Notes: generated by a model not told the origin, from the sequence alone. 56,732 nt of DNA from a virus (IMGVR_UViG_3300010373_000055:1-56732); one strand, 5' to 3'. Shown: positions 1 through 56,732, counted from the stretch's first letter. A program made the numbers and translations.

Positions 1-9
1 AAAGCTATC

Positions 10-282
10 ATGGATCATTTGAACGAGCGTCACGATATCGAGCGAACCAAGATGAGAAAGTATATGCGCAAGCACGCATTGTCAAATGGCGTCGATTTCT
101 CTGATACCGCCAGCACTGAGGGGGCGCTGCTGAAGTTGTGCGAAGCGCTGGAGAAACGGATGCGAGAAGTCTGCGCGGATATCCGTGATATACCAGAGAT
201 CAACAAGGGCAAGTGGCGGGACTTCTTAGATGGTGTGGCAGATCAGCTAGATGAGTTACTGCCAAATGATGAGGAAGTGTAA
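10..282 (+). CDS. hypothetical protein
   Basis: 90 aa helical ORF overlapping the next gene. Confidence 0.6.
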   Translation: MDHLNERHDIERTKMRKYMRKHALSNGVDFSDTASTEGALLKLCEALEKRMREVCADIRDIPEINKGKWRDFLDGVADQLDELLPNDEEV

Positions 283-772
283 AATATGCGGGCTGAAAAA
301 GCCAAAGTCTGATTTCCACAAATATAAATCAACGAGCAGCAAAGGCATCACATATGAGAACCTGCGAACCTACTGCATTGATTGCGAGCGCAAAAAAGAA
401 CTGCAACGTTACTATGCCAGCACAGCTGATAAAAAAGCCAGGATGCGAGAGCGCAACCGTGAGAGTGCGGCGGCACGACGACGGCGCGAAGGAAAGCCTG
501 TGCGTAAGATCGTCAATGGTGCATATGGAGCGGCACGTACTGGCATGGGCGGTAATGCACACGCAGACAATCTACCGTGGAAGCCGATGCTCAATGCGAT
601 CAAGGCGTCCGGCCTTACATTCAGAGAAGTGGCAGCGCGGACAGGACTTAGTGAACGCACATTCAAACGATCAGAAGAACTTGGCTATGTCACGATCTAC
701 ACGGCGGATGCTATGTGCATTGGAATCGACACGCACCTCAACTTTGTGTACCCGGAGCTAGCTGATGATTAG
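251..772 (+). CDS. Zn-ribbon plus C-terminal HTH DNA-binding protein (start probably 266 or 269)
   Basis: CKIC...CIDC cysteine pairs; HTH-like LTFREVAARTGLSERTFKR. Confidence 0.6.
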   Translation: MSYCQMMRKCKICGLKKPKSDFHKYKSTSSKGITYENLRTYCIDCERKKELQRYYASTADKKARMRERNRESAAARRRREGKPVRKIVNGAYGAARTGMGGNAHADNLPWKPMLNAIKASGLTFREVAARTGLSERTFKRSEELGYVTIYTADAMCIGIDTHLNFVYPELADD

Positions 773-1670
773 AGTTCGGTGTAATGATGAAGATTGGTAT
801 GTACTAGCGCAGGATATTCCGCGTGATCTGTACTTGCTTTGTAAGCAGCCACCAATGACTCCTGTGCAGTATGTAAGTGCCGATGATTGGGGAATACCAT
901 CCGAGTGGAATGGCACTTGGTTTGCAGGAGTGCAGATCGAAAGCGCAATGAGAGAACCAGATGAGCCTCTAGACGCTAAAGGGTTCATGGACCAGATGAA
1001 GCGTAACATGCAGGAGGCAGGAATCACGTATACAGATGGTGACCCAATCGACAAGATTGTCAAAGCGATGAGTACGGAGTTTTTCAAAATCATGAATTCA
1101 GCTACAGAGAAAACTATTAGTTTTGACAATGCACAGGAAGAATATAACCGTCTGACTGATCGTATGAGACAGAGATTTCTGAGGGAACAGGAAACCAAAA
1201 TGCGCCCACCAGACGCTTCATACACCATGCAGGATGCTCTCGATTGGGCGTTCAGGAGTGGTGAGGAGTGGTGGGGTTGGGTTGATCGCAGCCGAGTTCT
1301 GAAGTCGGGCGTCAAAGTCAAAGTATTGGGCGTCGGAGATTTGGATAAATGGGATGAGTTTACGCCCGACTTCGCCAAGGAGTACCCACAGAACTTTGCG
1401 CATGTTGGTGTAATCTGGACAGAACGTGATCTCACCGCCGAGGAGGCGGCACAGATCATCGACCCGAGCGGAGCGCTTAGCAGCAAGTTGAGCAGGCTGC
1501 GCACTGAAGATTGCGATAGCTTTGAGGCTGCTTGGGACTTCATCGAATACCTAGCAGATGAAGAAATGGGCGAAGCTAACTGTATCAAGAAGCAGAATCT
1601 AGTCTGTTACGTGAGGAGAGGGGCAGTTTGGCAGGCTATTCAGGAGGGACTGCCTGAGACAAGGCTATAG
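765..1670 (+). CDS. hypothetical protein
   Basis: 301 aa ORF, GGAG RBS, overlaps upstream stop. Confidence 0.7.
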   Translation: MIRVRCNDEDWYVLAQDIPRDLYLLCKQPPMTPVQYVSADDWGIPSEWNGTWFAGVQIESAMREPDEPLDAKGFMDQMKRNMQEAGITYTDGDPIDKIVKAMSTEFFKIMNSATEKTISFDNAQEEYNRLTDRMRQRFLREQETKMRPPDASYTMQDALDWAFRSGEEWWGWVDRSRVLKSGVKVKVLGVGDLDKWDEFTPDFAKEYPQNFAHVGVIWTERDLTAEEAAQIIDPSGALSSKLSRLRTEDCDSFEAAWDFIEYLADEEMGEANCIKKQNLVCYVRRGAVWQAIQEGLPETRL

Positions 1671-1772
1671 ACGTGCTCGGAGGCTTACAGAGGCAGGGGT
1701 AGGAGGCGTTTGCAGGGCTATAGGGCTACTACCCTACTACTAGAGGTCTAAAACGGCTTAGAAAGGACTACA

Positions 1773-2237
1773 ATGAGCAGACGAGGCGAAGAAATCAAGG
1801 CAGCAGACGAGCTACGTCGAGAGCTTTTTGAAGAAGGTTGGGAGCGGAATGAGGATGCGATTCCAGATTGTCGCCAGTGGTGTTGGGATTGTGCTTGCGA
1901 AGCGCGGTCTTTGGCGCTAGTTTCCAACGGAGAAAAACGCAAAAATTGGAACAAAATATCACACAGATTCTTGGAAGTTGTTGTGATCTTTGATGTCAAG
2001 TCTATATTTGAGTTGCGCAAAGACATGGAGGAACAGCTGACTGGCTCTGTGTTGATTTCAATTAGCTCTGAAAGCTGGCGCGAGGTTCAGGTGGAGCAGC
2101 TAAGACAGCGCATGATTGAGATAGCTAACTGGGCAATTGAGTACAAGAAGATGGGGCGAGAGGTAGACAAGGCTATTTTGAAGATGCACAATTTGGAGAA
2201 ATACTTGGGTGATATGATCGAACTTGATGGTAAGTAA
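1773..2237 (+). CDS. hypothetical protein
   Basis: 154 aa ORF, AAAGGA RBS. Confidence 0.65.
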   Translation: MSRRGEEIKAADELRRELFEEGWERNEDAIPDCRQWCWDCACEARSLALVSNGEKRKNWNKISHRFLEVVVIFDVKSIFELRKDMEEQLTGSVLISISSESWREVQVEQLRQRMIEIANWAIEYKKMGREVDKAILKMHNLEKYLGDMIELDGK

Positions 2238-2246
2238 ATTGGAGGC

Positions 2247-2413
2247 TTCGCGCGTATACGCGGGACGGAAGGACTCACTAGCGCGACAGCAGCTTATTGT
2301 CGAAACGATTTTTGCGGTGTGTGTGTGTGTTTTCGAGGCTTAGCGAAATCGAAAATTGCAATAGGGGTTAGCTGGGCTCGCGCTAGTGAGACTGTCCGTC
2401 CTATGCGTGCGAG
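2247..2413 (+). ncRNA. candidate long rod-like structured RNA (or DNA cruciform)
   Basis: Nested inverted repeats 2247-2258/2402-2413, 2263-2269/2395-2401, 2274-2286/2378-2390 (perfect 13 bp); (GT)7 at the centre. Confidence 0.45.
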
Positions 2414-2421
2414 GGGGTTTC

Positions 2422-2988
2422 ATGAAGCGATTTGAGGTTGAGAGTTCTGTTGGTGATTTGGTAGGGCGTTATGGTATAATGGGGCTTGATTTAGGAGGTG
2501 TTAGTGGTGTCACGACTTGGATTGGCGATGTACGATCTGGCGATTCGATCAGCGGTACGTTGCGGGCTGGGCGGTTTGAATGGACGCAGGTGGACTGTGG
2601 TAAAGGGACCGCTGATGGTGAGCGTCGGGGAGCGGAACGAATCGCAGGCGAATGGTTGGATTTTGAATTTGAGTGTTGTTTATCCTCTGTGCCTGTTGGA
2701 AATCGACTGTTGTGTATCGAGGATTACCGACTGCGCAGTAGACCGGGAGGCATGGCCGGGGGCTCGATGGCGCGGGTGGGTGTTTCTTCACCACGACTTG
2801 CTGGGCTGGTCGAGGGAATGTTGGTTAGAGCTATTCCAGGGGAGAGGATCATTCGTACAGTACCCGCTACCAGTAAGTCGTTTGCCACTAATGCGCGACT
2901 GAAAGACTGGGGGTTATGGTGTAGGGGCGGCGAGCACGCGAGGGATGCTGCGCGGCAGATTGCGGTGCAGGTCGCACGCTTCCTCTAA
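2422..2988 (+). CDS. RuvC-like Holliday junction resolvase
   Basis: IMGLDLGG, LCIEDY and HARDAARQ match the RuvC/RNase H acidic residue pattern. Confidence 0.7.
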   Translation: MKRFEVESSVGDLVGRYGIMGLDLGGVSGVTTWIGDVRSGDSISGTLRAGRFEWTQVDCGKGTADGERRGAERIAGEWLDFEFECCLSSVPVGNRLLCIEDYRLRSRPGGMAGGSMARVGVSSPRLAGLVEGMLVRAIPGERIIRTVPATSKSFATNARLKDWGLWCRGGEHARDAARQIAVQVARFL

Positions 2989-3091
2989 AATCGTTCCGCA
3001 GAAAAGTTGGGCTCTAAATATGCGTCGTGCGCGCGTGCAGGCGAGTAACTGTGCAATTTTGGTAATAAAAACCAAGTGCTACGCTACACAC

Positions 3092-3628
3092 ATGTCCTAT
3101 GTCGTTACCAGGCGTCGCAAGGGGAAAATGGTTACTACTGAGCCCTTGGCCGCTTGGCGCGTTGAGCGTGCTAGAGAGCGTAGTTATTTGGACACGCTCG
3201 ACAAGGCTGAGCTTGCAGATTGTATGCAGGAACTAATCAATGAAGTTGCCTTTGAGCTACGTTACGCAAACGCAGAAGTAGGACGCTTGAAGCCGGGTTT
3301 GAGTGAGAAACCATTCGACCCTGTAACCACTAAGATGGCTCACGAGTTGTGGGTTTCTGTGGATGTGAATGGTAACAGGATCGTTGACTTTTCTCTATGG
3401 ATCAAACGGGTAGATTCGCTTCAGGACAAGCTGTTCAAGATGGTAGAAGTGGCACAGAAACTGGGCCTCACCGACCGCCTCACCAAAGCCAAGGAGGCTG
3501 AAGTAGCATTGCTGGGCGAGGCGTTAGCGGCGGCATGTAGGCGCATAGGAATGGAGGAGGACGTACAGCGGGAGTTGGGTTCAGCACTGCGCAAGGAGTT
3601 AGCAGTCATCGAGGGTAAAGCAAAATGA
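3092..3628 (+). CDS. putative terminase small subunit
   Basis: Helical C-terminus (GLTDRLTKAKEAEVALLGEAL) resembles actinophage TerS; upstream of TerL; start uncertain (3092 or 3128). Confidence 0.5.
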   Translation: MSYVVTRRRKGKMVTTEPLAAWRVERARERSYLDTLDKAELADCMQELINEVAFELRYANAEVGRLKPGLSEKPFDPVTTKMAHELWVSVDVNGNRIVDFSLWIKRVDSLQDKLFKMVEVAQKLGLTDRLTKAKEAEVALLGEALAAACRRIGMEEDVQRELGSALRKELAVIEGKAK

Positions 3629-3783
3629 ATAAATTGCGAACACGATTTGCACTATGGATTGCACCATGGCTAGAAGAAGAGATAGATGATCCGTGGGAAG
3701 TTATTGATAAACTAACCGATGAAGTGTGTGGTAAACACTTCATTGATGAGCAGGGTAATATATACTGGGCGGCATACCAATAG
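3625..3783 (+). CDS. small hypothetical protein (52 aa)
   Basis: ATGA-coupled to the upstream stop; MNKLRTRFALWIAPWLEE... Confidence 0.5.
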   Translation: MNKLRTRFALWIAPWLEEEIDDPWEVIDKLTDEVCGKHFIDEQGNIYWAAYQ

Positions 3784-3790
3784 CAGATAG

Positions 3791-4198
3791 ATGAAACGAA
3801 CGGCACATTTAGAAGCGCTTAGGATTGCTGATAAGGAACTTGCAGCGGAGCGAGACCGCAGGTATGCAGCGGAAATAGTGGAGCGCGAAAAGGCATTGCG
3901 TATCAAGGATGAGGCAGACAAGACAGCCCTTGGACTTGAACGGGAAATCCAGGTTTACAAGGATGAGAAGGCTAATGAGCTACGCAGCCAGATCGAGAAA
4001 GAACGTGGAGAAATGGCTACCAAGGATGATCTTGCGGCCCTCAGCGAACGCTTTGATGTATCGCACAAGCCCGTGGTTGAATTCATGAGCGAGCAGAAAT
4101 CAGCACAGGCGAGTTTGGCACAGTTTCAGGCAAGGATGGTAGGACTTGTTGGATTGATGGTGTCTATCGGTGTAACCATAACGATTCTAACTCGATAA
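3791..4198 (+). CDS. coiled-coil protein with C-terminal TM helix
   Basis: Charged coil followed by MVGLVGLMVSIGVTITIL. Confidence 0.7.
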   Translation: MKRTAHLEALRIADKELAAERDRRYAAEIVEREKALRIKDEADKTALGLEREIQVYKDEKANELRSQIEKERGEMATKDDLAALSERFDVSHKPVVEFMSEQKSAQASLAQFQARMVGLVGLMVSIGVTITILTR

Positions 4199-4521
4199 TG
4201 GACGACCGCGATAAAACAGGTGAACGAGAATCTGGTAACATACGGATGCGGCAGATGGAACGCGAGCTTGCACGCATTGGAGAGCTTGTTGGCAGCGGAC
4301 GTGCAGACATTAGCTTGGTAACAAGCGTAGCTCTATTGCAATCAAGTGTGAAAGACTTACGAGACGATATCAAAAACTTGAAACGAGATTTTGATGAGCG
4401 AGAGAAGTTCCACGCAGACGAACGGAGGTCACTCAGGGTTGCACTCATAGGGCTTACAGCGACGATCATTGCAAGCCTGATTGCAGCAGCAGTGACACTC
4501 TACGTTTCGAGCCATCGATGA
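4198..4521 (+). CDS. coiled-coil protein with C-terminal TM helix (holin/XhlA-like topology)
   Basis: VALIGLTATIIASLIAAAVTLYV. Confidence 0.65.
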   Translation: MDDRDKTGERESGNIRMRQMERELARIGELVGSGRADISLVTSVALLQSSVKDLRDDIKNLKRDFDEREKFHADERRSLRVALIGLTATIIASLIAAAVTLYVSSHR

Positions 4522-4811
4522 CGGACTTTACCAAACACCACCTAACACTAATCACAACTACACTCACAGCTTGCGTCGCGCTGCTCGCGGTAACGGCGGT
4601 AGTACTGAGTGTATTGGCATTCACAAGTGCAAACAGCAGCATCAAAGGTAACTGCAACAACATTGAGGAAGTCAAGACTAGCCTGCGACAGATCATTGGT
4701 GAGGCAAAGACGCTCCAGGAAAAATCACCCGTGCGATCCAAACTAGAAAAGGAAGCATCCACACAGTTCTACACTGATACTCTTGGAAGGCTCAAGGGAA
4801 GGAATTGCTAA
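4518..4811 (+). CDS. membrane protein with N-terminal TM helix
   Basis: LTACVALLAVTAVVLSVLAF; two Cys in the soluble part. Confidence 0.65.
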   Translation: MTDFTKHHLTLITTTLTACVALLAVTAVVLSVLAFTSANSSIKGNCNNIEEVKTSLRQIIGEAKTLQEKSPVRSKLEKEASTQFYTDTLGRLKGRNC

Positions 4812-5185
4812 TGAACAAGCCTAAATCAAACTTTGACCCACCAGTGTTTGCACCAAAAGGTGGGGTTGAGGCTCGCGGGGACACTGCCCTGGCGCGCGCA
4901 GTACGGGGCGGAGCTTGCGTCAATTGTGGCAAAGGCTCTGCCCCGTTCTGCACTGATCGCTGCCGGGCAGAGTTCCGAGACAAGGTTGGGCAGCGCGCTT
5001 ATGAAGTAAAGCACGGTTGCCCGCCACCTGTAAGAGTTGGTGCGCCACGCAAACGACAGATCCACGCGAGGCAGTCGAAGATGGCAGGTTTACGCGGTGC
5101 CGAGGTCTCGACGTTCGGTGCACGCCGTAGTCCAAAGACAAAACCATATTCGCGCAGCGTGCATGGAAACTATTTGGTGAAATAA
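4811..5185 (+). CDS. basic Zn-finger protein
   Basis: CVNCG...FCTDRC. Confidence 0.55.
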   Translation: MNKPKSNFDPPVFAPKGGVEARGDTALARAVRGGACVNCGKGSAPFCTDRCRAEFRDKVGQRAYEVKHGCPPPVRVGAPRKRQIHARQSKMAGLRGAEVSTFGARRSPKTKPYSRSVHGNYLVK

Positions 5186-5865
5186 TGGCGATGACAAACG
5201 AAGAAATCCGTAAAGCTGCTCGACGGTATTGGGGTAAGTTGAAACGCACCGAAGAAATCCAGATGGAAGCGAACGGGATTCGAGCCGAACTGGAAAATGA
5301 AGGTGTCGATGTTGCTAACTGTGCACCAGGACAGATGGTAAAACGAACAGTGGTGGAAGTGGGATCGGAATAATGCCCGCACCTGGCTTCCCTTCACAGA
5401 ACCCAGCGCGCAACACTCCAGGCGTGCGCCCACCCACAAGCGGCGGCACACTACTGGAATGGCTAAAATGGAGGTTCCCTAGCGTAGCTACGCAGGTGGA
5501 AGGGATCAAGCACGATACCAGGGAGGATTACAAGAGCGCGGATTACGCTAAGCAGCACCCAGGTAAGACAGGAAGGACACCGTAATGGGTTTGTTACTAG
5601 ACATACTGATAATTGTAGTTGTGGTTTACCTGATAGTTTTCTTTGTGAGAAGGATTGGCTGATGTTTGTTTGGGAGAGCAAAGCTAAACGGGAACGTCGG
5701 GAGAAAGATATCCAGATGCTCTCGAATTGCTGCGACGCCTTTGGGGAGTTTTATGCTTGTCGCCAGGAGATATTCAACAACCGCAAAATCGTACCACGCA
5801 TGAATGAGGCGATGGAACGTCGAGTGCCACTGGTAAATGCACTGGACGATAGGATGCGACCATGA
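5185..5865 (+). other. four translationally coupled micro-ORFs (5185-5373, 5373-5585, 5585-5662 TM peptide, 5662-5865)
   Basis: TAATG/TGATG overlaps; 5585-5662 reads MGLLLDILIIVVVVYLIVFFVRRIG. Confidence 0.55.
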
Positions 5866-6275
5866 GAAAACAGTGTAAAACTCGTGGTATTCTTGGTGAG
5901 ACGAGTATAGGTCCACATCACATACCTGATTTTGCAATACCTGAGAAAGCTAAAGATGAAAATGACATGTTGCCACTGCCACTGCGTGATTTTCACTATA
6001 TTGCAGGAGCATGGGCGCGTAAGTATTTTCCCAGGTATGGTCTAGAATATTCACATCCAACGGCGTTTACTCTACCAGCATGAACAAACAGTGTAAAGAC
6101 ATGCGCGAATGGAAGCTCATATCACAGCCGGGCCGCATCTTTGCGCACGCGGGGCCAGCGTTCTCTGAGGCTGAGATATGGGTTGTGCCGAAAAACGCGC
6201 TGAAGACCTTGAAGCAGAATTAGCTTCGGTGCGTGCGTTTATGCGCGAACTAGCACAATGAGAAAACAGTGTAAA
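5862..6275 (+). repeat. three copies of ATGARMAAACAGTGTAAA starting consecutive micro-ORFs (5862, 6080, 6258)
   Basis: Copies at 5862 and 6258 are identical over 18 nt; the 6080 copy differs at 2 nt; all encode M(R/N)KQCK. Confidence 0.85.
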
Positions 6276-6594
6276 GAAGGAAACCATGTGTACAAAAGCG
6301 CAACACTCAAGTGTTGGTACTGCGGAAGGCCCAAGACATGATTCTAGTAATCGTAGTGGCGGGCACGCTAGCGCTAGCTTGGCTGCTAGGGAGAGTGAAC
6401 CCAACATGAAGCTATATCGGGTAAACGTTGATTACACAGAGAACGAAAACAAACGTAGTGGTTTCACTGTAACTATAAAAGCTAAGAATGGCGAAGAGTT
6501 ATTTGATATGCTGGGGAAAGACTTGAAGGAACACTATGGGGTAAATGCAGCAGATATTGTCAAGATCAAAACAGAGCTGGTTTGGTCGGAGTAA
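6258..6594 (+). other. coupled micro-ORFs: 6258-6341 Zn-finger peptide, 6338-6409 TM peptide, 6406-6594 hypothetical
   Basis: ATGA overlaps; C-x4-H-x8-C-x2-C in the first; MILVIVVAGTLALAWLLG in the second. Confidence 0.5.
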
Positions 6595-6596
6595 CC

Positions 6597-8030
6597 ATGT
6601 CGAGCGTTCTTAGTCGTGTCGCTGATTTTCTTGATCCTCTCCCGGTGGAACCTATCCGGGAGTGGATACAGACACGGCTCAAAGAGCATGTGTGGAAAAA
6701 GCAGGTGGAGATATGCGAGAGCGTCGAACGGAACCGATTCACAGCGGTCCAGTAGGCACACGGTACAGGGAAGTCATTTATCGCCAGTCGGATTTGCGCC
6801 GCGTGGTTGGACAGGTACGCTCCTGGCGAGGCGTTCGTAGTGACAAGCGCACCAAGCGACAAACAGGTAAAAGCAATATTGTGGAGGGAGATAGGACGTG
6901 CACACCGAAAGGGTAATCTTGAGGGAAGGATTACTCTGGACGCCAATTGGTACATCGGTGACGAAATCGTTGCTTATGGTCGCAAGCCTCAGGACCTTAC
7001 GGACCCTAACGAGGCGATGCAGGCGTTTCAGGGAATCCATGCCCGCTATGTACTTGTGGTGCTCGATGAGGCTTGTGGTGTACCTCCTTGGCTGTGGGTT
7101 GCAGCCGAATCCCTTGTCACAAACGCCAACAGCCGAATACTTGCGATTGGGAACCCGGATGACCCATCATCTGAGTTTGAGAAAAACTGTCGCCCTGGAA
7201 GCGGTTGGCATAATATCAAGATTTCAGCGTTTGATCTACCGTGGAACACTGGCGAGGTTATACCACCAAGCTTAGAAGATTTGCTCACAGGTCAGATGTG
7301 GGTGGAAGAGCGCAAACGTAAGTGGGGCGAGGAAAGCCCATATTACATTTCCAAGGTCCTGGGTTGTTTCCCGGAGGTCGCAGACGACACACTCATCTCG
7401 CCCGCGATGATCCGGGCGGCACACGAATACGAAACTCAGCACTCGCTGGAGTTTGGTGTAATGGGAGCCGACATCGCGCGGCTAGGCAAGGACCGCACTT
7501 GTGTATACCACAACCGTGGGGGAGAGGTACGCAAGATATACGAGGTCCACAAGCAGTTGACGGACAAGACTGGTGGCAAGCTGATGGCGCTACTGCGGCA
7601 GTTCGCAAATCGTGTACCAATGCAGATAGACGCCATTGGACTCGGAGCTACAGTTTACGACTTCATGAACGCAGTTGGTGCAAACGTGGTGCCATTCGTG
7701 GGAAGCGAAAAAGCACACGTCCGGCCCGACCGCTTCAAGAACAGGCGCGCGGAGGGTTACTGGAATCTGCGCGGCCTCATGGAGGAAGGACTAATTGATC
7801 TAGACCCAGCTGATGAAGATTTAGCTGCTGAGTTGTGCAATATCAAGTTCTGGCACGACACGGCTGGCAGGGTACAGATTGAGACAAAGGAGGAATTAGA
7901 AAAACGAGGATTACCATCACCAGACAACGCGGACGCAGCGATGATGAGTTGCGTGCGGCCACCGGAGTTTTACGTTGATCCTGACCCGTTGCCAAGTTTG
8001 ACGGGCGACCTACTAGACATGCCAATGTAA
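6597..8030 (+). CDS. terL: terminase large subunit (in-frame TAG at 6753-6755)
   Basis: Walker A AVQ*AHGTGKS, Walker B VVLDEA, AIGNP, nuclease GADIARLGKD and SPDNADA; the frame is continuous across the stop. Confidence 0.92.
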
Positions 8031-8046
8031 GGAAAGTGGAGGAGCA

Positions 8047-8241: not shown

Positions 8242-8243
8242 CC

Positions 8244-8465: not shown

Positions 8466-8478
8466 GAGCCCAAAAACC

Positions 8479-49950: not shown

Positions 49951-50471
49951 TAAGTAAGAAAGAAGCCGCAGAAGGCGACCCTATGAAAAAAGCTGTAGCG
50001 CAGGCTTGGAAGGACCACATGACGCAGCGCGACAAACACGCAGAGGATTCGATGGAGGGCGCTGTAGGTCCTGAGCGGCGCACGCTACAGGGCACGCGCA
50101 GCGGTCCGACAGTCAAGCTAGAGGTCGGCGGCGTAGAGGGTTACATCACAGCGAACGGCTTCGAGGACGGACATTTGGGGGAGGTTTTCTATCATGGATT
50201 TGGAAAGGAGGGCAGCACGCTAGAGGGGTGGACGCAGGGATTCGCAATGATGACGAGCATTGCTTTACAGTATGGGGCGAAACTCGACATGCTGGCGCGT
50301 AAGTGTGCTCACATGCGCTTCGAGCCTAACGGAGAAACTAACGATCCAGACATCCCGTGGTGTGCAAGCGTAATTGATTACACGATGCGCTGGCTAGCCA
50401 AGCACTATGGTGATGCAAAACTCAACGCCGAACTAGACGAGATAACCCGCAAAATGAGGAAACCGCTATGA
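49947..50471 (+). CDS. stand-alone TSCPD-like domain (class II RNR C-terminal domain)
   Basis: GYITANGFEDGHLGEVF...KEGSTL...SIALQYG...MRFEPNG...SVIDY..RWL. Confidence 0.78.
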   Translation: MISKKEAAEGDPMKKAVAQAWKDHMTQRDKHAEDSMEGAVGPERRTLQGTRSGPTVKLEVGGVEGYITANGFEDGHLGEVFYHGFGKEGSTLEGWTQGFAMMTSIALQYGAKLDMLARKCAHMRFEPNGETNDPDIPWCASVIDYTMRWLAKHYGDAKLNAELDEITRKMRKPL

Positions 50472-50884
50472 AGATATACGTGGGAGGCGCGATAGATGAC
50501 ACGTCTATCGAGCGCGTGCGGCAGGTGCAGGCGCACGTAGCGCGTTGTGGACATAAGATAACGTTCGATTGGACCACACATAAGATCGACCCACACGCTT
50601 CGGAGACTTGGCGCAAGCAGGAGCTAGCGCACATGGAGCTTGCAGGCGTAGAGCGAGCAGATATTTTGATTGCATTGTATCCTGACGGTCGTGGTTTGTC
50701 GATGGAGATAGGTTACAAGATGGGCAAGATGCTAAGTAACGAACAGCTACCTAATGGTAAGCCGCCAATATGGGTTGTCGATCCGAAGCGACCTGCCTTG
50801 TTTTATTCCCTACATTGCATCAAGGTTGTCGATTGGGATGACCTGGCTAAAGAGATAGAGAATCTTCCAGACTTGGAACGATAA
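50468..50884 (+). CDS. nucleoside 2-deoxyribosyltransferase-like protein
   Basis: KIYVGG, ITFDWT, ELAGVERADILI, GLSMEIG. Confidence 0.75.
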   Translation: MKIYVGGAIDDTSIERVRQVQAHVARCGHKITFDWTTHKIDPHASETWRKQELAHMELAGVERADILIALYPDGRGLSMEIGYKMGKMLSNEQLPNGKPPIWVVDPKRPALFYSLHCIKVVDWDDLAKEIENLPDLER

Positions 50885-51165
50885 TGGCAGTCTACGTTGA
50901 CAACGCAGAAATCCCTTTTAGCAACATGACGATGAGTCATTTAGAGGCTGATAAATTACCGGAGCTTCATCATTTCGCCGCACGTTTAGGATTGCGAAGA
51001 AGTTGGTTTCAGAATAAGTCTGTACCACACTATGATGTAAGTCGTGCTAAGCGCTTGCAGGCAATAAAGATGGGAGCAATTGCTGAGGATTGTTATAGCT
51101 TTAGAGATAATAAAGTGCGAGACGAACGTCACGAACGTTGGCGCAAAATAGGTAAAGGCAAGTAA
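50884..51165 (+). CDS. DUF4031-family protein
   Basis: MAVYVD...SHL.AD...ELHHFAARLGLRRSWFQ...HYDV. Confidence 0.82.
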   Translation: MAVYVDNAEIPFSNMTMSHLEADKLPELHHFAARLGLRRSWFQNKSVPHYDVSRAKRLQAIKMGAIAEDCYSFRDNKVRDERHERWRKIGKGK

Positions 51166-54100
51166 TGGGCGATAAGGTAGACCTAACTAAGAGCGCTGCC
51201 TTTGCAGGGCGGCAGAAGTCAGAGTGTTCACACGAACATCAGACGGTAACTGTGCGAGCGCAGCGGCGCCAGAGAGCGGCGGCAAGGGCGCACGTAGGGC
51301 TAAAGCCGATGCGCTTTGTGTCCCTCCACCACCACTCGACTCTAGGCTCTTATATGGACGGATATCAGCTACCGGAGGCGCACGTTAGGAGGGCCACCGA
51401 GATAAACATGAGTGGGTTGGCGATGACCGAGCACGGCAACATCGACAGTCACGTCAAGTTCGAGGCAGCGGCAGAAAAGCACAACATCAAGGCGATCTTC
51501 GGATGTGAGTTCTACACAGGGAGGGTTGGAGAACATGCGACGCAGAGTAAGTATCACCTTACCGTATTGGCCGCAACACAGGAAGGGTATCGAAATCTAC
51601 TTCAGCTCGTCACCAAGTCTTTCTCTGAGGGTTTTCATTATCACGCTACCATTTCCGGTGAGATGCTCTATCGTCACCGAAAAGGGCTCATTATACTAAG
51701 TGGTTGTCAGGGAAGTTTATTGCATTGCTCAGCAGTTGGTGGTAAGATGATAAAGGAAGAGGATGCGAGTTATGAGCGGGCGCGTAAAGTCGCTGAATGG
51801 TTCAAGCGAAAGTTTGAGGGCAGTTACTACATTGAGGTTCAGGGATTTCCCGAGCTTTCCGCCACCAAACGATTCGCTCCCATGGCAGAGCGTCTATCGA
51901 ACGAGTTACACATTCCGCTGGTGGGGAGTATGGATTGTCACTACACCGCTCCAGAGGAGGTTGAGCTTCAGCAGGTCCTCCACAATGTCAGGCCGGGTGA
52001 GAAGAAGACTTTGGAGGAGCAGATTAGGTCTTGGGGTTATACAGTACCTCTGTGCCCACCACCCACGGATCGCGCGCTATTTAGGCGATTGGTTGACACG
52101 GGACTTAGTAAAAGAGCCGCCAGCGAGGCCATCATAAATACAGAGGTTATCGCGCAGCAGTGCAACGTTACTCTGCCAAAGTTGCCAATGGTCGAGTTTC
52201 CGCTACCTGTTGGATTCGATACTGCGATCAAATTTTGGCGCCATCTAATAAAGGAGGGGTGGAGGTATCGAGGCTTCAATAAGTTACCAAGAAATGAGAG
52301 AGAGAGATATCGTGCGCGTCTGCTCTATGAGATGGAGATCATTGAGAAAAAGGGATTCGTCGGTTACTTGCTCATCGTTGCCGACTCAATTGTATACGCT
52401 AAGGAAAATGAAATACCATGTCACTGCCGAGGTAGTGCAGCCGGGAGCTTAGTTACTTACTGCCTGCGCATCACTGAGGTAAACCCGATGCTATTCCCCA
52501 ATCTAGTGTTCGAGAGGTTCATAGATGTCAGCCGTGCTGATTTACCTGATATTGATGTTGACTTTGATAGTGACCGCCGTCACCTTGTGCGCGAGTACAT
52601 GGTTGGTAAGTATGGCGAGCGTTGCGTTAGCAATATCGGGACCTTCACTTACTATAAGTCTCGCCTTGCTCTTGATGATGTGGGAAGAGTATTTCAGATT
52701 CCAAAATTTGAAATCGAGATTGTCAAGGCTCGACTAATTGAGCGCTCGTCAGGTGACATCCGTGCGAGCGCTACGATTGAAGATACCGCCGAACAGTTCG
52801 AGGACGCGCGAGCAGTGTTCGAGAAGCACCCCGATCTATACAAGGCAATGGATCTAGAGGGTAACGTCAAGGGGTTCGGAGTACATGCGGCAGGTCTGGT
52901 AATTAGTAACAGGCCAATTGAAGAGATGTGCGCGGTATATTCGCGCATTGTCAACAAGCAGCTTATCTCCTGCGTCAGCATGGATAAGTACGATGCCGAG
53001 CGACAGGGCTTGCTAAAGCTCGACTATCTAGGGCTGAAGACGCTAGCGATGATCGCTGAGAGTCTAAGGCAGATCGGCAAGCCGCTGACTTTTCTCTACA
53101 ATTTACTATTAGATATGGAGGAGGTTTTAGATGGGTTCCGTGAGAATGATGTTACAGGTGTATTCCAGTTCGACGGTCTTGCCATGCGGTCGGTTTGTGG
53201 AGCACTCAAACCCGATAGCTTCAAGGAGATATGCGACGTCAATGCACTCTCCCGACCAGGCCCCCTTCACAATGGAGCCGCAGATGAGTATATCGAGATC
53301 AAGCGTGGCTCGAAGAAGCCGGAGCTTATTCACCCTGCTTTGGACTCCATCACGGCCGACACTCACCACCAGATCGTATATCAGGAGCAGATTTTGCGAG
53401 TCGTCACCGAGGTCGGTAATTTTGACTGGACACATGCTAGCTATATACGCCGAATTATTTCCAAGAGCCTTGGAGTAGAAGAGTTCAACAGGCAGTGGGC
53501 TAGGTTTTGGGAGGGCGCTAAGGAATACCACAAACGTAACGGTGGTGAGCCGATCAACAAGGAAATCGCTAAATTGATTTGGTCTCTGTGCATAACGTCC
53601 GGCACCTACGCCTTCAACGCTGCCCATTGTGTTAGCTACGGCATGTTAGCTTATTGGACAATGTGGATAAAGCGTCTCTACCCAATTATCTTCTATGCCG
53701 CCAGTCTTCAGAAGATGTCCGACAAAAAACCGAAGGGACAGAAAGATGCCAGCATCAAGATGGGTCGCCACGCCATACTGCTACGCGATGCTGCGGCAGG
53801 CCGGGGAAAACGCGCACCAATACGAATCCTGCCGCCCCATCCGACTAGAAGCGGGGTGGATTGGAGAGCTACAAACTCCGGGCTTCAGAGCGGTTGGCGA
53901 CAGGGAGGAGCAGCAGCAGTCGGAGCACGCGCTATCGAGTACCGCGAAAGCAATGGTGTAGTAAAAGACTGGAAAACCTATTTGGCAGTGCCCGGTATTG
54001 GTCCGAAGACAGTAGCCAAGATGGAAGAACTAGAGAAAATGGATGACCCATTTGAGGTCCTGAAGCTAAGCAAAATGATCGCAGAGGTAAAGCGTAACCT

Positions 54101-54485
54101 TACTCGGTGGGGCATCCCGCAGGCAACGCACACAAGCATGGAGGTTCCTCACGCACGCGGTAGCGACACACGGGTGGTGTGGGTTGGCATTGCAATCACA
54201 CGCAATCTGCGCGACATCTACGAGCACAACCGCGCGCACGGCGGCGATGAGCTAAAACGCGATGAGATAAAACATCCAGAGCTAAACGAGCTAATGATAA
54301 TGAGGGCTACCGATGGTGAAGAGCAGATTGCAGTTCGCATCGACAGGTTCAAGTATCCACATTTCCGCGAGGCCCTGTGGGGCTTACGACTAGGGCACGA
54401 TGCTATAGTTGTCGAGGGGATAAAGCCGGGGTGGCGCACGTCCCGTGAAATATACATAAAAAACATGTGGGTAGTTTCACCATGA
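51165..54485 (+). CDS. dnaE: DNA polymerase III alpha subunit (DnaE-like)
   Basis: SLHHHS PHP domain, RGSAAGS, FERF, PDIDVDF, GVHAAG, KLDYLGL, IVYQEQI, YAFNAAH. Confidence 0.95.
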   Translation: MGDKVDLTKSAAFAGRQKSECSHEHQTVTVRAQRRQRAAARAHVGLKPMRFVSLHHHSTLGSYMDGYQLPEAHVRRATEINMSGLAMTEHGNIDSHVKFEAAAEKHNIKAIFGCEFYTGRVGEHATQSKYHLTVLAATQEGYRNLLQLVTKSFSEGFHYHATISGEMLYRHRKGLIILSGCQGSLLHCSAVGGKMIKEEDASYERARKVAEWFKRKFEGSYYIEVQGFPELSATKRFAPMAERLSNELHIPLVGSMDCHYTAPEEVELQQVLHNVRPGEKKTLEEQIRSWGYTVPLCPPPTDRALFRRLVDTGLSKRAASEAIINTEVIAQQCNVTLPKLPMVEFPLPVGFDTAIKFWRHLIKEGWRYRGFNKLPRNERERYRARLLYEMEIIEKKGFVGYLLIVADSIVYAKENEIPCHCRGSAAGSLVTYCLRITEVNPMLFPNLVFERFIDVSRADLPDIDVDFDSDRRHLVREYMVGKYGERCVSNIGTFTYYKSRLALDDVGRVFQIPKFEIEIVKARLIERSSGDIRASATIEDTAEQFEDARAVFEKHPDLYKAMDLEGNVKGFGVHAAGLVISNRPIEEMCAVYSRIVNKQLISCVSMDKYDAERQGLLKLDYLGLKTLAMIAESLRQIGKPLTFLYNLLLDMEEVLDGFRENDVTGVFQFDGLAMRSVCGALKPDSFKEICDVNALSRPGPLHNGAADEYIEIKRGSKKPELIHPALDSITADTHHQIVYQEQILRVVTEVGNFDWTHASYIRRIISKSLGVEEFNRQWARFWEGAKEYHKRNGGEPINKEIAKLIWSLCITSGTYAFNAAHCVSYGMLAYWTMWIKRLYPIIFYAASLQKMSDKKPKGQKDASIKMGRHAILLRDAAAGRGKRAPIRILPPHPTRSGVDWRATNSGLQSGWRQGGAAAVGARAIEYRESNGVVKDWKTYLAVPGIGPKTVAKMEELEKMDDPFEVLKLSKMIAEVKRNLTRWGIPQATHTSMEVPHARGSDTRVVWVGIAITRNLRDIYEHNRAHGGDELKRDEIKHPELNELMIMRATDGEEQIAVRIDRFKYPHFREALWGLRLGHDAIVVEGIKPGWRTSREIYIKNMWVVSP

Positions 54486-54601
54486 CGCAGTACAACCGCA
54501 ATACTTCTTTTGCCCAAAATGCAAAGGATCATATACTGTACGCAATAATGGTAGACGCTATTGTATGACCTGCGAAAATAAAGAACGAATTAGGAGGCGC
54601 A

Positions 54602-55495
54602 ATGAAAGAAGAGATAGCAAACTGGGCCGATAAGGCGATGTATGATGCGGCGCCAATGCAGAGCATAGAACCACAGGTGCACCTTTTGAGCGCGACTCCT
54701 GACCCGCTAGGAGCCATTGCGGCGGCGTGCAGGATGTATGAAGGCAAGCCCACATATGCCCTAAAGGACATCACGGACGAAGAACGCGAAGCTGCCTGGC
54801 AGCAGGTAAACGAGACACACCTAAAGGCACCGCTAGAGTTCGTGGACCTTCATTTCTTTATCGAGGGCGTCACGCGCAGTAATACTCACCAGATGGTGCG
54901 TCAGAGGACCGCAGTCTATGCGCAGGAGTCCCTACGCTTCGCGGTCAAGGGCGAAATGTCGAAGGAGGTAGCGCTCCCACCGTCCCTACAGGGCGGGGAC
55001 AAGAAACGTGCTAGGGATATGTGGTTGCTTACAACCGAGAACTTAGAGGAGGTTTACAACGCTCTGATCGGTGAAGGTGTTCCCGCCGAGGATGCGCGGG
55101 GTCTACTACCGCACGCCATCACCACACGTCTCAATTACAAGACCAACCTCCGCAATCTACTAGAGCACGCGGGCAATCGCCTGTGCACTCAGGCACAGTA
55201 CGAGTGGCGGGCAGTGTTCGCAGGCATCGTCAAGGCCATCCACGACTACTCGCCACCACAGTACGAACCGCGCAGCGTGCACGCACCGATAGTACAGAAA
55301 TGGAATAAATGGCAGTTTGAGCTAATTGCAGGATCAGGAGTTTTCAAGCCTGTGTGTTTTCAGCTAGGCCACTGCCCATTCAACGCCAAATTTGATCGTG
55401 GTTGCACTATCCGTAAACGTGTTGAAGAAGGTAGGTTCGATCAGATCAATTATGAAGAGTGGATGTACTACCCGACAGCGGGCCGAGTTCTGTAA
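54602..55495 (+). CDS. thyX: ThyX-like flavin-dependent thymidylate synthase homolog
   Basis: APLEF, GVTRS..HQMVRQR..YAQESLRF, EDARGLLP, RLCTQAQYEW. Confidence 0.82.
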   Translation: MKEEIANWADKAMYDAAPMQSIEPQVHLLSATPDPLGAIAAACRMYEGKPTYALKDITDEEREAAWQQVNETHLKAPLEFVDLHFFIEGVTRSNTHQMVRQRTAVYAQESLRFAVKGEMSKEVALPPSLQGGDKKRARDMWLLTTENLEEVYNALIGEGVPAEDARGLLPHAITTRLNYKTNLRNLLEHAGNRLCTQAQYEWRAVFAGIVKAIHDYSPPQYEPRSVHAPIVQKWNKWQFELIAGSGVFKPVCFQLGHCPFNAKFDRGCTIRKRVEEGRFDQINYEEWMYYPTAGRVL

Positions 55496-55508
55496 TCAAT
55501 CTAGGAGT

Positions 55509-56174
55509 GTGAGAGGTATCAAGCCATGGAAACCGTATATATTGCTCTCGCTATTTGGGCTCTGTTTATTCTTGCTTTCTGCTTCGGCATCTGCTTGGCA
55601 GGTCGCAGGAGCAAGCGTCTACGGAGGAAAATGTGAGTATGGATCGACAGGCTATCGAGGAGACAATCTCAATTCTGTGCCCTGGTCCTTTGCCGAGTTG
55701 GACATGGGTACAGCTATGGGGAACTTACGTTACGATGAGGGCATTTTACTACGAGACAAAAGCACGCACAGGATGGCCGTGGTTCGCAAGCGAGATATCG
55801 GAGGAGGCGGCGATGCAGTAAATGGAGTTCCACGTAGGATCGACTTATGGATGCCAGTAGCAGAATATTTATCAAACGCAAGTTGCACATGGACAGGAGT
55901 TGTGGAATGGCGAAGGTTGTCAGGAAAAAAGCGCAGGCCAGACGGTCCAGTACGAAAGCGACGCGCACACCACAGGATGAAGCCAACGCGAGTACAAGCA
56001 AAAGCGATAATGATCGGTTTGGGGCAGAAGTTAGGAGCGTTGCAGATAACTTCGCCATCATTGGCAAGCGACTACGCGAGTCCGGCGACGACGAAGGCGA
56101 GCGGTTTGTCAACGCCTTTGGTGGTCTCCTTATGGGATGTTGGCTTGAGCTTCACAGGATTGCTGATGCGCTAG
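55509..56174 (+). CDS. secreted RlpA-like double-psi beta-barrel protein (both ends uncertain)
   Basis: Signal peptide ending SASASA; ASVYG, KRDIG, RRIDLW. Confidence 0.6.
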   Translation: MRGIKPWKPYILLSLFGLCLFLLSASASAWQVAGASVYGGKCEYGSTGYRGDNLNSVPWSFAELDMGTAMGNLRYDEGILLRDKSTHRMAVVRKRDIGGGGDAVNGVPRRIDLWMPVAEYLSNASCTWTGVVEWRRLSGKKRRPDGPVRKRRAHHRMKPTRVQAKAIMIGLGQKLGALQITSPSLASDYASPATTKASGLSTPLVVSLWDVGLSFTGLLMR

Positions 56175-56269
56175 ATCATAAAGCAGCGCTCGACTTTATC
56201 CGCGAATACGAAGGTAAATCTGGACCAATCCAGTTTATGGGTTCGAGTAAAGAATCGGCAAGCAAATGA
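55907..56269 (+). CDS. hypothetical protein
   Basis: AGGAG RBS; ELHRIADALD. Confidence 0.55.
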   Translation: MAKVVRKKAQARRSSTKATRTPQDEANASTSKSDNDRFGAEVRSVADNFAIIGKRLRESGDDEGERFVNAFGGLLMGCWLELHRIADALDHKAALDFIREYEGKSGPIQFMGSSKESASK

Positions 56270-56354
56270 AAATCTGCTGGGTATGTAAAGGTCTTGGGCA
56301 TTTATGTATCTGGCAGAATAATGGGCATGGGCAACAGGAACAAGTAAAGCGCCC

Positions 56355-56630
56355 ATGCCAAGACTGCCACGGATTAGGGGTGACGCCAAAGTGAGACGAC
56401 GCAAGCAGGGCCGGTTACGCAAGCTCAACTATTTAGATCGACAGCGCAAGAAAGCGCGCAACGAACGGCGCGGACGCATTAGCAAAGTAGTCGCGTGGGA
56501 GAAGAGTCACGTACATAAAATGTTCAAACCGTGGACTGACACGGACGTGACAAAGAGCAAAAAGAAAATCGCAGTTGATTCGTTAGTTGATGCTTTGAAA
56601 ACACTTGGTGATGCGAAAGGGAGGGAGTGA
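56355..56630 (+). CDS. highly basic hypothetical protein
   Basis: Arg/Lys-rich 91 aa; followed by a partial ORF running off the window. Confidence 0.55.
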   Translation: MPRLPRIRGDAKVRRRKQGRLRKLNYLDRQRKKARNERRGRISKVVAWEKSHVHKMFKPWTDTDVTKSKKKIAVDSLVDALKTLGDAKGRE

Positions 56631-56732
56631 TGGAAGAGGGAGAGCAGATTGGTCCCGGCCTCAAATACCAGGGAGACTTGGATGACGGCAAAGTTTCTCC
56701 GTTCGCTCGCGTACAGACACCGGAGGAAACCG

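Follow-up and report, generated by a model that had tools for sequence, protein, structure and literature searches.

Selective Loss of the Glutamine Codon CAA from the Conserved Genes of a Soil Phage Genome

Genome Organization

The window analyzed here comprises an entire virus record, 56,732 bp long and with a GC content of 51%. The phage is present in one soil metagenome run, and no match to the window was found among cultured phages. Translation with the standard code 11 gives intact genes, and all credible genes lie on the + strand. A crude gene set consists of the longest ORFs. A dynamic-programming gene caller, in which CAA and CAG carried a weight of zero, predicted 102 genes (CAA 15 / CAG 543), and correction of three starts by sequence reading resulted in the final set of 101 genes. 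Some tests (the binomial test and the orphan tally) used an earlier tally of 16 CAA in 558 Gln codons. The main features are the following:

1..56732, +, whole phage genome with in-frame CAA purge, CAA 17 / CAG 543 in 101 genes
10..9865, +, left arm with small, mostly uncharacterised genes, CAA 3 / CAG 82 (earlier tally)
9862..32355, +, lysis and structural (late) module, CAA 0 / CAG 239, with a GH25 lysin, a Mu-like portal (12077-13603), the MCP (15883-16791), the sheath (19281-20744), the tape measure (21909-23828) and fibre genes at 29644, 30342 and 30970
32353..32405, +, 53-nt repeat copy 1, presumed early promoter/operator
32451..37944, +, presumed early block, 17 genes of small to medium size, CAA 11 / CAG 50
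33442..33480, +, promoter-like TAGACA-18-TATAGT with a TG
36451..36503, +, 53-nt repeat copy 2 (98% identical), ahead of TATAGT and gene 36547-36729
37534..37582, +, repeat copy 3 (partial), followed by TATAGT
37941..39815, +, SNF2 helicase, CAA 0 / CAG 26
37941..56630, +, replication and nucleotide-metabolism module, CAA 2 / CAG 172, with a split PD-(D/E)XK nuclease, AAA_24, a primase-helicase (44623-47439), DnaE (51165-54485) and ThyX (54602-55495)
40480..41154, +, dCTP deaminase with one in-frame CAA at 40999

CAA Avoidance in Conserved Genes

Glutamine is encoded almost exclusively by CAG. In the crude set, 37 CAA stand against 548 CAG, while GAA/GAG (715/751) and AAA/AAG (548/657) are used at a ratio of about 1:1, so that CAA alone is depleted. 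The same set makes use of ATA (259), CTA (328), TTA (116), AGA (75) and AGG (167), and also of CGA (180). An earlier note on this sequence had described the avoidance as acting on the codon, with free use of GAA, AAA and these ATA-to-AGG codons, and the counts bear this out: out of frame, CAA is plentiful and not depleted (343 in the +1 and 693 in the +2 frame of the crude ORFs). The portal, MCP, sheath, tape measure, SNF2, primase-helicase and DnaE genes and both fibre genes named in that note have no CAA each; its terL, however, was identified by no family search of the window proteins.

The size of the effect is considerable. Genes of at least 150 aa contain 3 CAA and 406 CAG (final set), and conserved genes outside the early block, conserved meaning that a homolog is present in the closest genome, G001, have CAA at 0/410 Gln codons. 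With an expected share of 0.47, the pooled A share of Glu and Lys codons, at most 16 CAA among 558 Gln codons would occur with a binomial probability of 6e-125. Among 13 A/G codon pairs, that of Gln alone is affected, the other A-ending codons being at 25-67%. The bias is as absolute in replication genes as in structural genes, with no grading by expression level and no spread across codons, unlike ordinary codon adaptation to a host's tRNA pool.

The purge is specific to this genome. In G001 (60% GC), CAA makes up 17-24% of Gln codons in every module, and six relatives of 46-48% GC use it at 40-53%. None of 75 non-redundant related loci, each of at least 2,000 codons, shares the CAA purge, and the window alone was flagged. 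At 193 aligned Gln-Gln sites, CAA occurs 23 times in G001 and never in the window. The AAA share of Lys is 40-53% in the window versus 9-17% in G001, so the avoidance of CAA opposes the genome's own third-position drift towards A. Since AAA has risen to that level and CAA has fallen to zero in conserved genes, selection and not mutation bias is indicated.

Two further causes would be selection against nonsense mutations, with a cytosine deaminase turning in-frame CAA into the stop TAA, and an artefact of assembly or deliberate recoding. The record does contain probable errors, as it differs from the run's contigs by 29 substitutions and two insertions over 20 kb, and one of these changes falls within a CAA codon. 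At the ten other early-block CAA and at all compared CAG sites, however, the record and the contigs agree. Moreover, assembly errors are blind to the reading frame, so a frame-specific purge is not such an artefact, and CAG (543) and CGA, which are likewise one step from a stop codon, are freely used. Together with the undepleted out-of-frame CAA, this makes both causes scarcely credible.

CAA is read by tRNA-Gln(UUG) alone, whereas tRNA-Gln(CUG) can serve CAG. If this one tRNA were absent, very scarce or inactivated in the infected soil host cell, CAA would become unusable, and selection would swap every CAA for CAG in the conserved genes, counter to the drift towards A-ending codons. It is probable that CAA is effectively unusable in the infected cell for one of these reasons and that the conserved genes were purged in response. 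A cause at the tRNA level, tied to the host, is the most likely one. We infer tRNA-Gln(UUG) as the cause, the host and not the phage as its source, and the timing of the loss.

Remaining CAA Codons and the Presumed Early Block

The few CAA codons left are clustered. The presumed early block has them at 32661, 32905, 33153, 33180, 33394, 34333, 34692, 34788, 36634, 37691 and 37855, all in frame in called genes as previously listed, although 34333 is doubtful, reading CCA in the contigs of the single run containing the phage. Six of the 17 CAA fall outside the block. Of the scattered sites reported earlier, 3778, 4339 and 40999 lie in called genes, and 6256 does not hold, being in frame solely within a 27-aa ORF (6178-6261) that overlaps the preceding gene. 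Site 404 counts only if gene 269-772 has its upstream start, rather than being gene 500-772; a Zn-ribbon-like N-terminus makes this upstream start likely. The left arm has a further, doubtful site at 6332. The dCTP deaminase gene has no counterpart in the relatives G001 and G002, and its CAA is unchanged in the run's contigs.

Enrichment between 32.4 and 37.9 kb is clear, with CAA/CAG at 11/50 versus 6/493 elsewhere (Fisher OR 18, p 7.9e-8), and none of the 12 other A/G codon pairs shows a comparable one. The CAA-rich genes lie behind repeated, predicted promoter/operator elements; the earlier note had placed most of them just downstream of promoters. Copy 1 of the repeat contains a hairpin, the palindrome AAAGATTT-ATC-AAATCTTT and TTTAGGTT boxes; directly after it come a TATGCT -10-like hexamer and gene 32451. 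Gene 33478-34365 has its ATG 6 nt past the -10 hexamer, and in gene 37580-37765 the ATG follows TATAGT by 6 nt; with this spacing, both mRNAs are probably leaderless. At all four promoter-like sites, the genes that come first are CAA-bearing. The early status of the block is presumed from promoter-like motifs only, and a consensus promoter scan gave 20 sites versus 17.8 in shuffled sequence, which is no excess.

Leftover CAA, almost wholly in small lineage-specific genes and mostly directly behind the presumed early promoters, could either be translated ahead of the loss of the tRNA or lie in young or dispensable genes awaiting purge. The latter would fit a permanent host trait: the host would have no or little tRNA-Gln(UUG) and itself avoid CAA, the phage would have adapted, and the CAA-bearing genes would be recent arrivals, newborn ORFs or dispensable genes in which the purge is pending. 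We regard this as quite possible, if short of probable. The former would fit a tRNA-targeting defence of the host that inactivates tRNA-Gln(UUG) on sensing the infection; genes of the first minutes may then keep CAA, later-translated genes must be free of it, and the phage would escape by codon purge rather than by a tRNA of its own. This is possible but rather doubtful.

The phylogenetic distribution speaks for the permanent trait. Genes without a G001 homolog, called orphans, hold 14/16 CAA, the other two being 32661 and the doubtful 34333, so "early" is confounded with "young or accessory". The CAA-bearing orphans have no relative in the compared family loci or viral contigs. Unassignment or reassignment of CAA would agree with its absence from the conserved Gln positions; as for the residual codons, a single CAA can be aligned to G001, and it faces a Val where identity is 38-42%. 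On the other hand, the enrichment persists among orphans alone (9/29 in the early block versus 5/88 elsewhere, p 0.001) and among small genes alone, as expected under a triggered defence, and orphans outside the block have thus been purged too. CAA-bearing small genes resemble other small genes in GC, GC3 and synonymous usage (p 0.2-0.4), which does not favor recent arrival; synonymous usage is so flat, however (mean log-likelihood of 0.028 per codon, long genes included), that composition cannot reveal whether these genes are foreign.

Transcription units tell a similarly mixed story. The larger conserved genes of the early block have CAA at 0/7, 0/10, 0/4 and 0/3, and genes 36731 (0/4) and 36943 (0/10) come after the CAA-bearing gene 36547. 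The start of SNF2 overlaps the end of the CAA-bearing gene 37765-37944 by 4 nt, which places them in the same operon. This operon contains two CAA-bearing genes, yet SNF2 is at 0/26, which favors a permanent trait. Tolerance is therefore not common to all genes of one transcription unit, and timing within the operon cannot part gene 37765 from SNF2, which weakens the triggered defence. A permanent trait meets its own difficulty in the ten confirmed CAA of nine well-formed promoter-proximal genes, one of which has distant homologs: with strict absence of the tRNA, these nine intact genes would be untranslatable. At some stage, CAA can probably still be decoded. Ordinary translational selection would grade the bias and would not bring CAA down to zero in replication genes of low abundance. 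The idea that early genes are exempt is partly supported, by the enrichment; it is countered by the orphan confounding, by SNF2, by the conserved genes of the block and by the lack of an early exemption for ACA described below.

The earlier note had also considered a phage-encoded shutoff factor. Here, an early phage protein would inactivate tRNA-Gln(UUG), and the phage's own later genes would be immune by removal of CAA. The codon pattern would be the same as under a host defence, and among the early orphans several of 50-70 aa occur in this phage only. However, neither Pfam scans of 70 window proteins nor PHROGs scans of 20 of these gave a match to an RNase, PIN, HEPN, RelE-like or tRNA-modifying family, and the predicted folds of 36943-37557 (pLDDT 78) and 35169-36095 (pLDDT 61) had no PDB match at E <= 0.001. 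These searches produced no RNase or tRNA enzyme as a candidate, and such a factor is improbable. The same Pfam/PHROGs scans (70/20 proteins) found no RNA ligase or kinase-phosphatase family, and the window has 0 tRNA genes and 0 Rfam matches at E <= 1. A contest over tRNA thus has no marker among the scanned features of the window, be it a tRNA, an RNA ligase, a kinase-phosphatase or a nuclease, and this counts against the tRNA-level explanation.

ACA Purge in Related Phages

Three relatives (G002, G003 and L016) have lost another codon, the Thr codon ACA, and again only in frame. ACA makes up 2/850 Thr codons in G002, a complete genome, 6/601 in G003 and 0/171 in the long ORFs of L016. Out of frame it is common (L012 112+35, L016 71+17, L084 83+54; in the survey of the 75 loci, 557 in G002 and 322 in G003). 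CAA and ACA are the only codons purged in the window and its relatives. Both depend on one U34 tRNA each, their synonyms being read by other tRNAs. In E. coli, ACA is read by a single isoacceptor, tRNA-Thr(UGU) (PMC12445682).

G002 carries a gene for precisely this tRNA-Thr(UGU) (ARAGORN; Rfam 64.4 bits), which links the ACA purge in the relatives to that tRNA gene. No other tRNA genes were found in the window, in eight further loci or in 60 family loci. The ACA-purged relatives lend indirect support, by analogy, to a tRNA-level cause of the CAA purge; the parallel comes from other phages and is not evidence on CAA in the window itself.

G002 and G003 have seven protein matches (23-44% identity), mostly between replication genes, and their structural modules are otherwise unrelated. 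Their common replication genes (SNF2, PD-(D/E)XK nuclease and AAA_24) also occur in unpurged genomes. A common ACA purge without any common lineage-specific gene points to the host, and argues further against a phage shutoff protein. In the genes upstream of SNF2 of the ACA-purged relatives, ACA occurs at 0/64 Thr codons, so early exemption is not general. This complete purge is in line with a permanent host trait and runs against a triggered defence. The tRNA gene of G002, in turn, would suit a defence that is countered by a phage tRNA, and is awkward for a permanent trait, as G002 retains a tRNA for a codon absent from its usage. That a phage avoids ACA and yet has the tRNA that reads it is unexpected under every simple form of the model.

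A ribosome-dependent mRNA nuclease of the host, a RelE/HigB-type toxin that cuts CAA in the A site, would leave the same frame-specific signature, and this class of toxins is codon-selective. We know of no CAA-only enzyme of the class, however, and with ACA, a phage that carries its own tRNA-Thr(UGU) speaks for the tRNA rather than the mRNA. This explanation is very improbable.

Comparison with Known Systems

Defences that cut tRNAs are the closest parallel. PARIS AriB and P2 OLD each cleave tRNA-Thr(UGU), with ribosomes stalling at ACA, and a phage tRNA-Thr(UGU) rescues infection (PMC12409363, PMC12445682). Triggered tRNA cleavage and phage tRNAs as countermeasures, tRNA-Thr(UGU) included, are established, in favor of a triggered host defence. 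In PrrC versus T4 Pnk/Rnl, AriB versus the T5 tRNA-Lys/Thr/Asn and P2 OLD versus a phage tRNA-Thr, the weak point is the sole isoacceptor for an A-ending codon, where ribosomes stall, and ACA with tRNA-Thr(UGU) is the exact pair of G002/G003. The known escapes are a resistant phage tRNA or tRNA repair, whereas the window removes the codon and has neither a tRNA nor a repair gene. Against such a defence, the only cutters of tRNA-Gln in the descriptions compared (retron Eco2, and P2 OLD in vitro) also cut many other tRNAs, and AriB left tRNA-Gln(UUG) uncut (PMC12409363).

Codon removal could itself be an anti-defence strategy, in which soil phages delete the codon of the targeted tRNA (CAA here; ACA in G002, G003 and L016), and the earliest genes, translated before the nuclease is triggered, are exempt and would then switch themselves off. 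We put this forward as a doubtful possibility. Should infection lead to destruction of the tRNA, codon removal would be a third escape route from tRNA-targeting immunity, beside phage tRNAs and tRNA repair, and the genome sequence alone would read out which tRNA the host defence attacks. If, instead, the hosts permanently lack tRNA-Gln(UUG) or tRNA-Thr(UGU), moderate-GC soil bacteria with an unassigned sense codon would exist; phages would be a cheap means of finding them, and the codon fingerprint may serve host prediction.

Codon loss of the latter kind is found in Micrococcus luteus, where AGA and AUA are unassigned and the tRNA set is reduced. There, too, a sense codon vanishes as no tRNA reads it, but such cases involve extreme GC pressure and many A-ending codons, whereas the window is of moderate GC and CAA alone is missing. 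In Streptomyces, the regulated bldA tRNA gates the single codon TTA. One codon and one tRNA likewise split the genes into two classes, but TTA marks late regulated genes and its tRNA appears late, whereas in the window CAA would be the mark of the earliest genes and its tRNA would vanish. A regulated tRNA was not observed here. Stop-recoded phages read TAG or TGA in late genes by means of suppressor tRNAs, which likewise sets early and late genes apart in codon use and ties this to a tRNA. Their late genes gain a stop codon read by a phage-borne tRNA; in the window a sense codon is lost and code 11 yields intact genes.

No description of a single-codon purge in a phage was found in the full-text literature searched, a body from which most subscription journals are missing. 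The mycobacteriophage Patience, a phage of 50% GC with a host of 67% GC, carries tRNA-Gln(UUG) as its sole tRNA (PMC4324244). It is alike in being a low-GC phage with relatives among actinobacterial phages and with CAA decoding at issue, and the window takes the opposite course.

Genome Content

The window sequence was found in one DNA run, a soil metagenome, and the phage is therefore uncultured; no RNA runs containing the sequence are listed. The window spans the whole of a virus record (56,732 bp) and has a GC content of about 51%. Both GC skew and AT skew are positive along its entire length, and all credible genes are located on the plus strand. The window has no tRNA genes and no Rfam matches, even at an E of 1. 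The following genes were named by the family scan.

Genes of the window with a family match
9862-10863, +, GH25 lysin
12077-13603, +, Mu-like portal
15883-16791, +, major capsid protein
19281-20744, +, tail sheath
21909-23828, +, tape measure
35169-36095, +, DUF2786 protein
37941-39815, +, SNF2 helicase
40480-41154, +, dCTP deaminase
41338-42332, +, PD-(D/E)XK nuclease, two ORFs
42687-43535, +, AAA_24 ATPase
44623-47439, +, Toprim/MCM-like primase-helicase
51165-54485, +, DnaE
54602-55495, +, ThyX

No candidate for the large terminase was named by any family search of the window. The 396-aa ORF at 6840-8030 has no Pfam family, and its sole match is a PHROG of unknown function. It adjoins a 52-aa ORF (6597-6755), and the homologs of both are likewise adjacent in G001, the closest complete relative genome. 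Judging from this arrangement, the two ORFs may be one gene that a shift or insert has interrupted, possibly the large terminase. Nearby, the tandem small ORFs at 5862, 6080 and 6258, the third of which is short (27 aa), have the same “M-R/N-K-Q-C-K” start, located on a 28-nt repeat. Two fibre-like genes have a common 95-nt 5' end (29644-29738 and 30970-31064, 75% identity) and thus paralogous N-termini. A nucleotide-metabolism set (40480-41154, 49947-51165, 54602-55495) comprises the dCTP deaminase, a TSCPD-domain protein, DUF4031, ThyX and, below the Pfam cut-off (E 2e-4), a weak resemblance to nucleoside 2-deoxyribosyltransferase. This set may hint at a changed supply of pyrimidines or at modified DNA.

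Errors are probably present in the record. Between 31000 and 50999, 29 substitutions, nine of them A>C, and two insertions separate it from the run contigs (depth about 220-240). Eighteen of the 26 genic substitutions are protein-changing, and two of the substitutions make stop codons sense (35036 and 48522). The PD-(D/E)XK nuclease, which is split over two overlapping ORFs in the window, is encoded by one gene (372-394 aa) in two relatives (G002 and G003); an additional T after 41754 in the contigs joins both ORFs in one frame.

Avoidance of the Glutamine Codon CAA

The gene set was built in three ways, to keep the outcome from hinging on CAA and CAG themselves. A crude tiling with the longest ORFs gave 37 CAA and 548 CAG; many of these CAA fell where a 5' end was over-extended or where the frame had poor coding signal. 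A dynamic-programming caller, for which long genes served as training set and both glutamine codons had zero weight, yielded 102 genes with 15 CAA and 543 CAG. Three starts were then corrected by reading the sequence: the start at 32860, which is preceded by a hairpin; those at 33478 and 37580, both probably leaderless; and that of the Zn-ribbon/HTH gene ending at 772, which was moved upstream. The final set of 101 genes contains 17 CAA and 543 CAG, and only 3 CAA for 406 CAG in genes of at least 150 aa.

Other A-ending codons are not affected. GAA and GAG occur 715 and 751 times in the window genes, AAA and AAG 548 and 657 times, and there is ample use of ATA, CTA, TTA, AGA and AGG. Out of frame, CAA itself has 343 and 693 occurrences, one figure for each of the remaining frames. 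If glutamine had the pooled A share of glutamate and lysine, the probability of so few CAA would be 6e-125. The avoidance is therefore at the codon level, specific to one codon and extreme, which bears out the claim of an earlier note that CAA is purged, and even more strongly than it was put there. The GAA share differs between modules, with 66% in the late genes (9862-32355) and 29% in the replication genes (37941-56630). Since G001 shows the same split (57% versus 26%), this is a family trait, separate from the CAA purge.

Codon Use in Related Phages

A capsid-protein search retrieved 80 viral contigs with 50-86% identity, and their long ORFs contain 2,136 CAA versus 7,481 CAG. Six relatives of 46-48% GC have a CAA share of 40-53%. 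The capsid tree places the window together with G001 and L001, neither of which is purged. G001, a 60% GC genome of 53.6 kb with terminal repeats, is syntenic with the window, and its CAA share is 17-24% in all four modules, early and late alike. At 193 aligned Gln-Gln sites, CAA is present 23 times in G001 and never in the window, whereas the AAA share of lysine is 9-17% in G001 and 40-53% in the window. The lineage therefore shifted to A-ending codons while eliminating CAA. This combination speaks for selection rather than mutation bias.

A regression over 75 non-redundant loci for single-codon deficits flagged five strong ones: CAA in the window, the threonine codon ACA in G002, G003 and L016, and, more weakly, TCG in L019. 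In the latter, the serine codon TCG is found 3 times versus about 26 expected; its clade also includes L020, L021, L026, L027 and L063, at 46-48% GC.

In G002 (L183, L184 and L185; complete, 50.8 kb) and G003 (L186 and L187; partial, 36 kb), the genes were called blind to threonine codons. ACA represents 2 of 850 threonine codons in G002 and 6 of 601 in G003, three of the latter in a probably over-extended 5' end, and 0 of 171 in the long ORFs of L016. Here too, ACA is common out of frame, and other A-ending codons are freely used. Because CAA and ACA are both plentiful out of frame, a DNA-motif cause (restriction, MazF-like) was rejected.

On the capsid tree, the ACA-poor L012 (belonging to G002), L016, L014, L113 and L126 form one clade, with the unpurged L006 as sister. 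G003 has no capsid homolog, and all it has in common with G002 is seven protein matches (23-44% identical), for the most part involving replication genes. The presence of the ACA purge in two such dissimilar genomes points to a shared host property rather than an inherited phage gene.

G002 also carries a tRNA-Thr(UGU) gene (L184:7188-7261; Rfam 64.4 bits). No other tRNA gene was detected in the window, in eight loci or in 60 further family loci. The sole tRNA in about 70 family loci thus reads the very codon that its carrier avoids, which ties these purges to the tRNA, and not to mRNA or DNA. Compared with Actinomycetota genomes, this tRNA matched none of five, then 2 of 401, weakly.

The host search gave the following results. 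Neither megablast with a 20-kb stretch nor tblastn with the lysin and a baseplate/fibre protein returned a match among cultured phages. The portal matches only Gordonia, Mycobacterium and Arthrobacter phages, at less than 40% identity, and a portal scan of genome contigs gave no match. When the same contigs were scanned with an alignment of the major capsid protein, 14 loci matched at 49-62% identity; most of them are in records of Actinomycetota (Micromonospora, Nocardioides, Catenuloplanes). These loci inform on the family, not on the window phage itself. G001 remained the closest relative after a metagenome scan, and no close viral contig was found for the lysin and the dCTP deaminase.

Residual CAA Codons and the Presumed Early Block

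The remaining CAA codons are concentrated in the block of presumed early genes (32.4-37.9 kb), with 11 CAA and 50 CAG, versus 6 and 493 elsewhere (OR 18, p 7.9e-8). The enrichment reported in the earlier note is thus recovered, and all 11 sites it placed there are in frame in called genes. At ten of them, the record and the run contigs agree; at 34333, the contigs read CCA, which is also the reading in the second copy of an internal 27-nt repeat. Outside the block, record and contigs agree on the CAA at 40999, and the site at 6256 is in frame only within a doubtful 27-aa overlapping ORF. None of 12 other A/G codon pairs shows a similar enrichment in the block, where GAA is lower, not higher.

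A 53-nt repeat marks the block: its copies at 32353 and 36451 are 98% identical, and a third, at 37534, is partial. Within the repeat are a hairpin, TTTAGGTT boxes and a palindrome of 19 nt, and a hexamer of the TATAGT or TATGCT type follows every copy. From these motifs, the repeat-linked sites are putative early promoters. An ATG is located 6 nt past TATAGT at both 33478 and 37580, which suggests that mRNAs starting there are leaderless. In a scan for consensus promoters and terminators, sites were no commoner than in shuffled sequence, and the exact motif CTATAGTTGA, with 2 mismatches allowed, was no more frequent than by chance. The 213-nt intergenic gap 3' of the SNF2 gene (39816-40028) has a promoter-like TTGCAA-17-TATACT with TG and, by eye, GC-rich inverted repeats; the run contigs have two additional letters after 40021.

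Availability of tRNA-Gln(UUG)

CAA and ACA are each read by one U34 tRNA, while their synonyms have other readers. In the best-supported reading, which we consider likely, the window phage has no tRNA-Gln(UUG) at its disposal in its host. The tRNA-level cause proposed in the earlier note is thereby retained as likely; neither the temporal gating nor the phage shutoff it proposed is established.

The tRNA may be lacking permanently as a host trait, the CAA-bearing genes being young, and this we hold as a tentative possibility. Fourteen of 16 CAA are in genes without a G001 homolog, these CAA-bearing orphans have no relatives in the family loci or viral contigs searched, and CAA accounts for 0 of 410 in the conserved genes outside the early block. 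SNF2 and other conserved genes of the same operons carry no CAA. The ACA-purged relatives show no early exemption either: in two of these genomes, the genes upstream of SNF2 have no ACA in 20 and 44 threonine codons, and the chance of 0/64 is 6e-7 at the roughly 20% share of unpurged relatives of similar GC. Compositional tests of whether the CAA-bearing genes are foreign had no power, because synonymous usage is nearly flat.

Alternatively, tRNA-Gln(UUG) would be lost upon induction of a host defence, with the early genes exempt, which we consider rather unlikely. Location in the block matters among orphans (CAA 9/29 versus 5/88 elsewhere, p 0.001) and among small genes (10/38 versus 4/113, p 0.0002), and it is the promoter-proximal genes that bear CAA. 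Nine of these genes, one of which has distant homologs, are intact with a normal coding signal and would be untranslatable had the tRNA never existed. In addition, the tRNA retained by G002 reads a codon that its genes do not use.

A shutoff of tRNA-Gln(UUG) encoded by the phage itself is very improbable, as no effector was found in family, fold or Atlas searches of window proteins. Pfam (70 window proteins, 20 of them also searched with PHROGs) revealed no PIN, HEPN, RelE or colicin-type nucleases and no tRNA-modifying or repair enzymes. The RNase or tRNA-modifying fold sought among the early proteins did not appear: models of 36943-37557 (pLDDT 78) and 35169-36095 (pLDDT 61) have no PDB match at E ≤0.001. 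Weak fold matches are generic small barrels and KH-like pieces overall. For 36943-37557, Sm/SH3-like barrels (Hfq, Rpp29; E 0.02-0.04) were set aside as a generic fold, and a DruA lead in the ESM Atlas (0.88) was below the acceptance bar; the Atlas gave no lead for 765-1670. A protein homology search with 36943-37557 and 33478-34365 returned only the query itself. The early proteins 32451-32792 and 33478-34365 have a common C-terminal domain, also found in one gene each of G001 and G002. The second contains a Lys/Ala-rich, histone-tail-like stretch and the internal 27-nt repeat. By eye, both look like DNA-binding regulators.

Comparison with Known Systems

PARIS AriB and P2 OLD cut tRNA-Thr(UGU) and stall ribosomes at ACA, and both are countered by a phage tRNA-Thr(UGU) (PMC12409363, PMC12445682). 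The dependence of ACA on a single tRNA is stated there for E. coli (PMC12445682). Such tRNA-targeting immunity and the phage counter-measures follow the same logic, except that the tRNA is supplied there, whereas here the codon is removed. Codon removal as a counter-measure would be new, and no published single-codon purge in a phage was found among the texts returned by a topical full-text literature search.

The purge also resembles the unassigned codons of bacteria with reduced tRNA sets, but the window differs by its 51% GC and by having only one codon involved. The pattern is the reverse of bldA/TTA gating. Mycobacteriophage Patience, likewise a phage of roughly 50% GC, has tRNA-Gln(UUG) as its only tRNA and has kept CAA (PMC4324244). 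It represents the opposite solution, keeping the codon and carrying its tRNA, whereas the window phage drops CAA.
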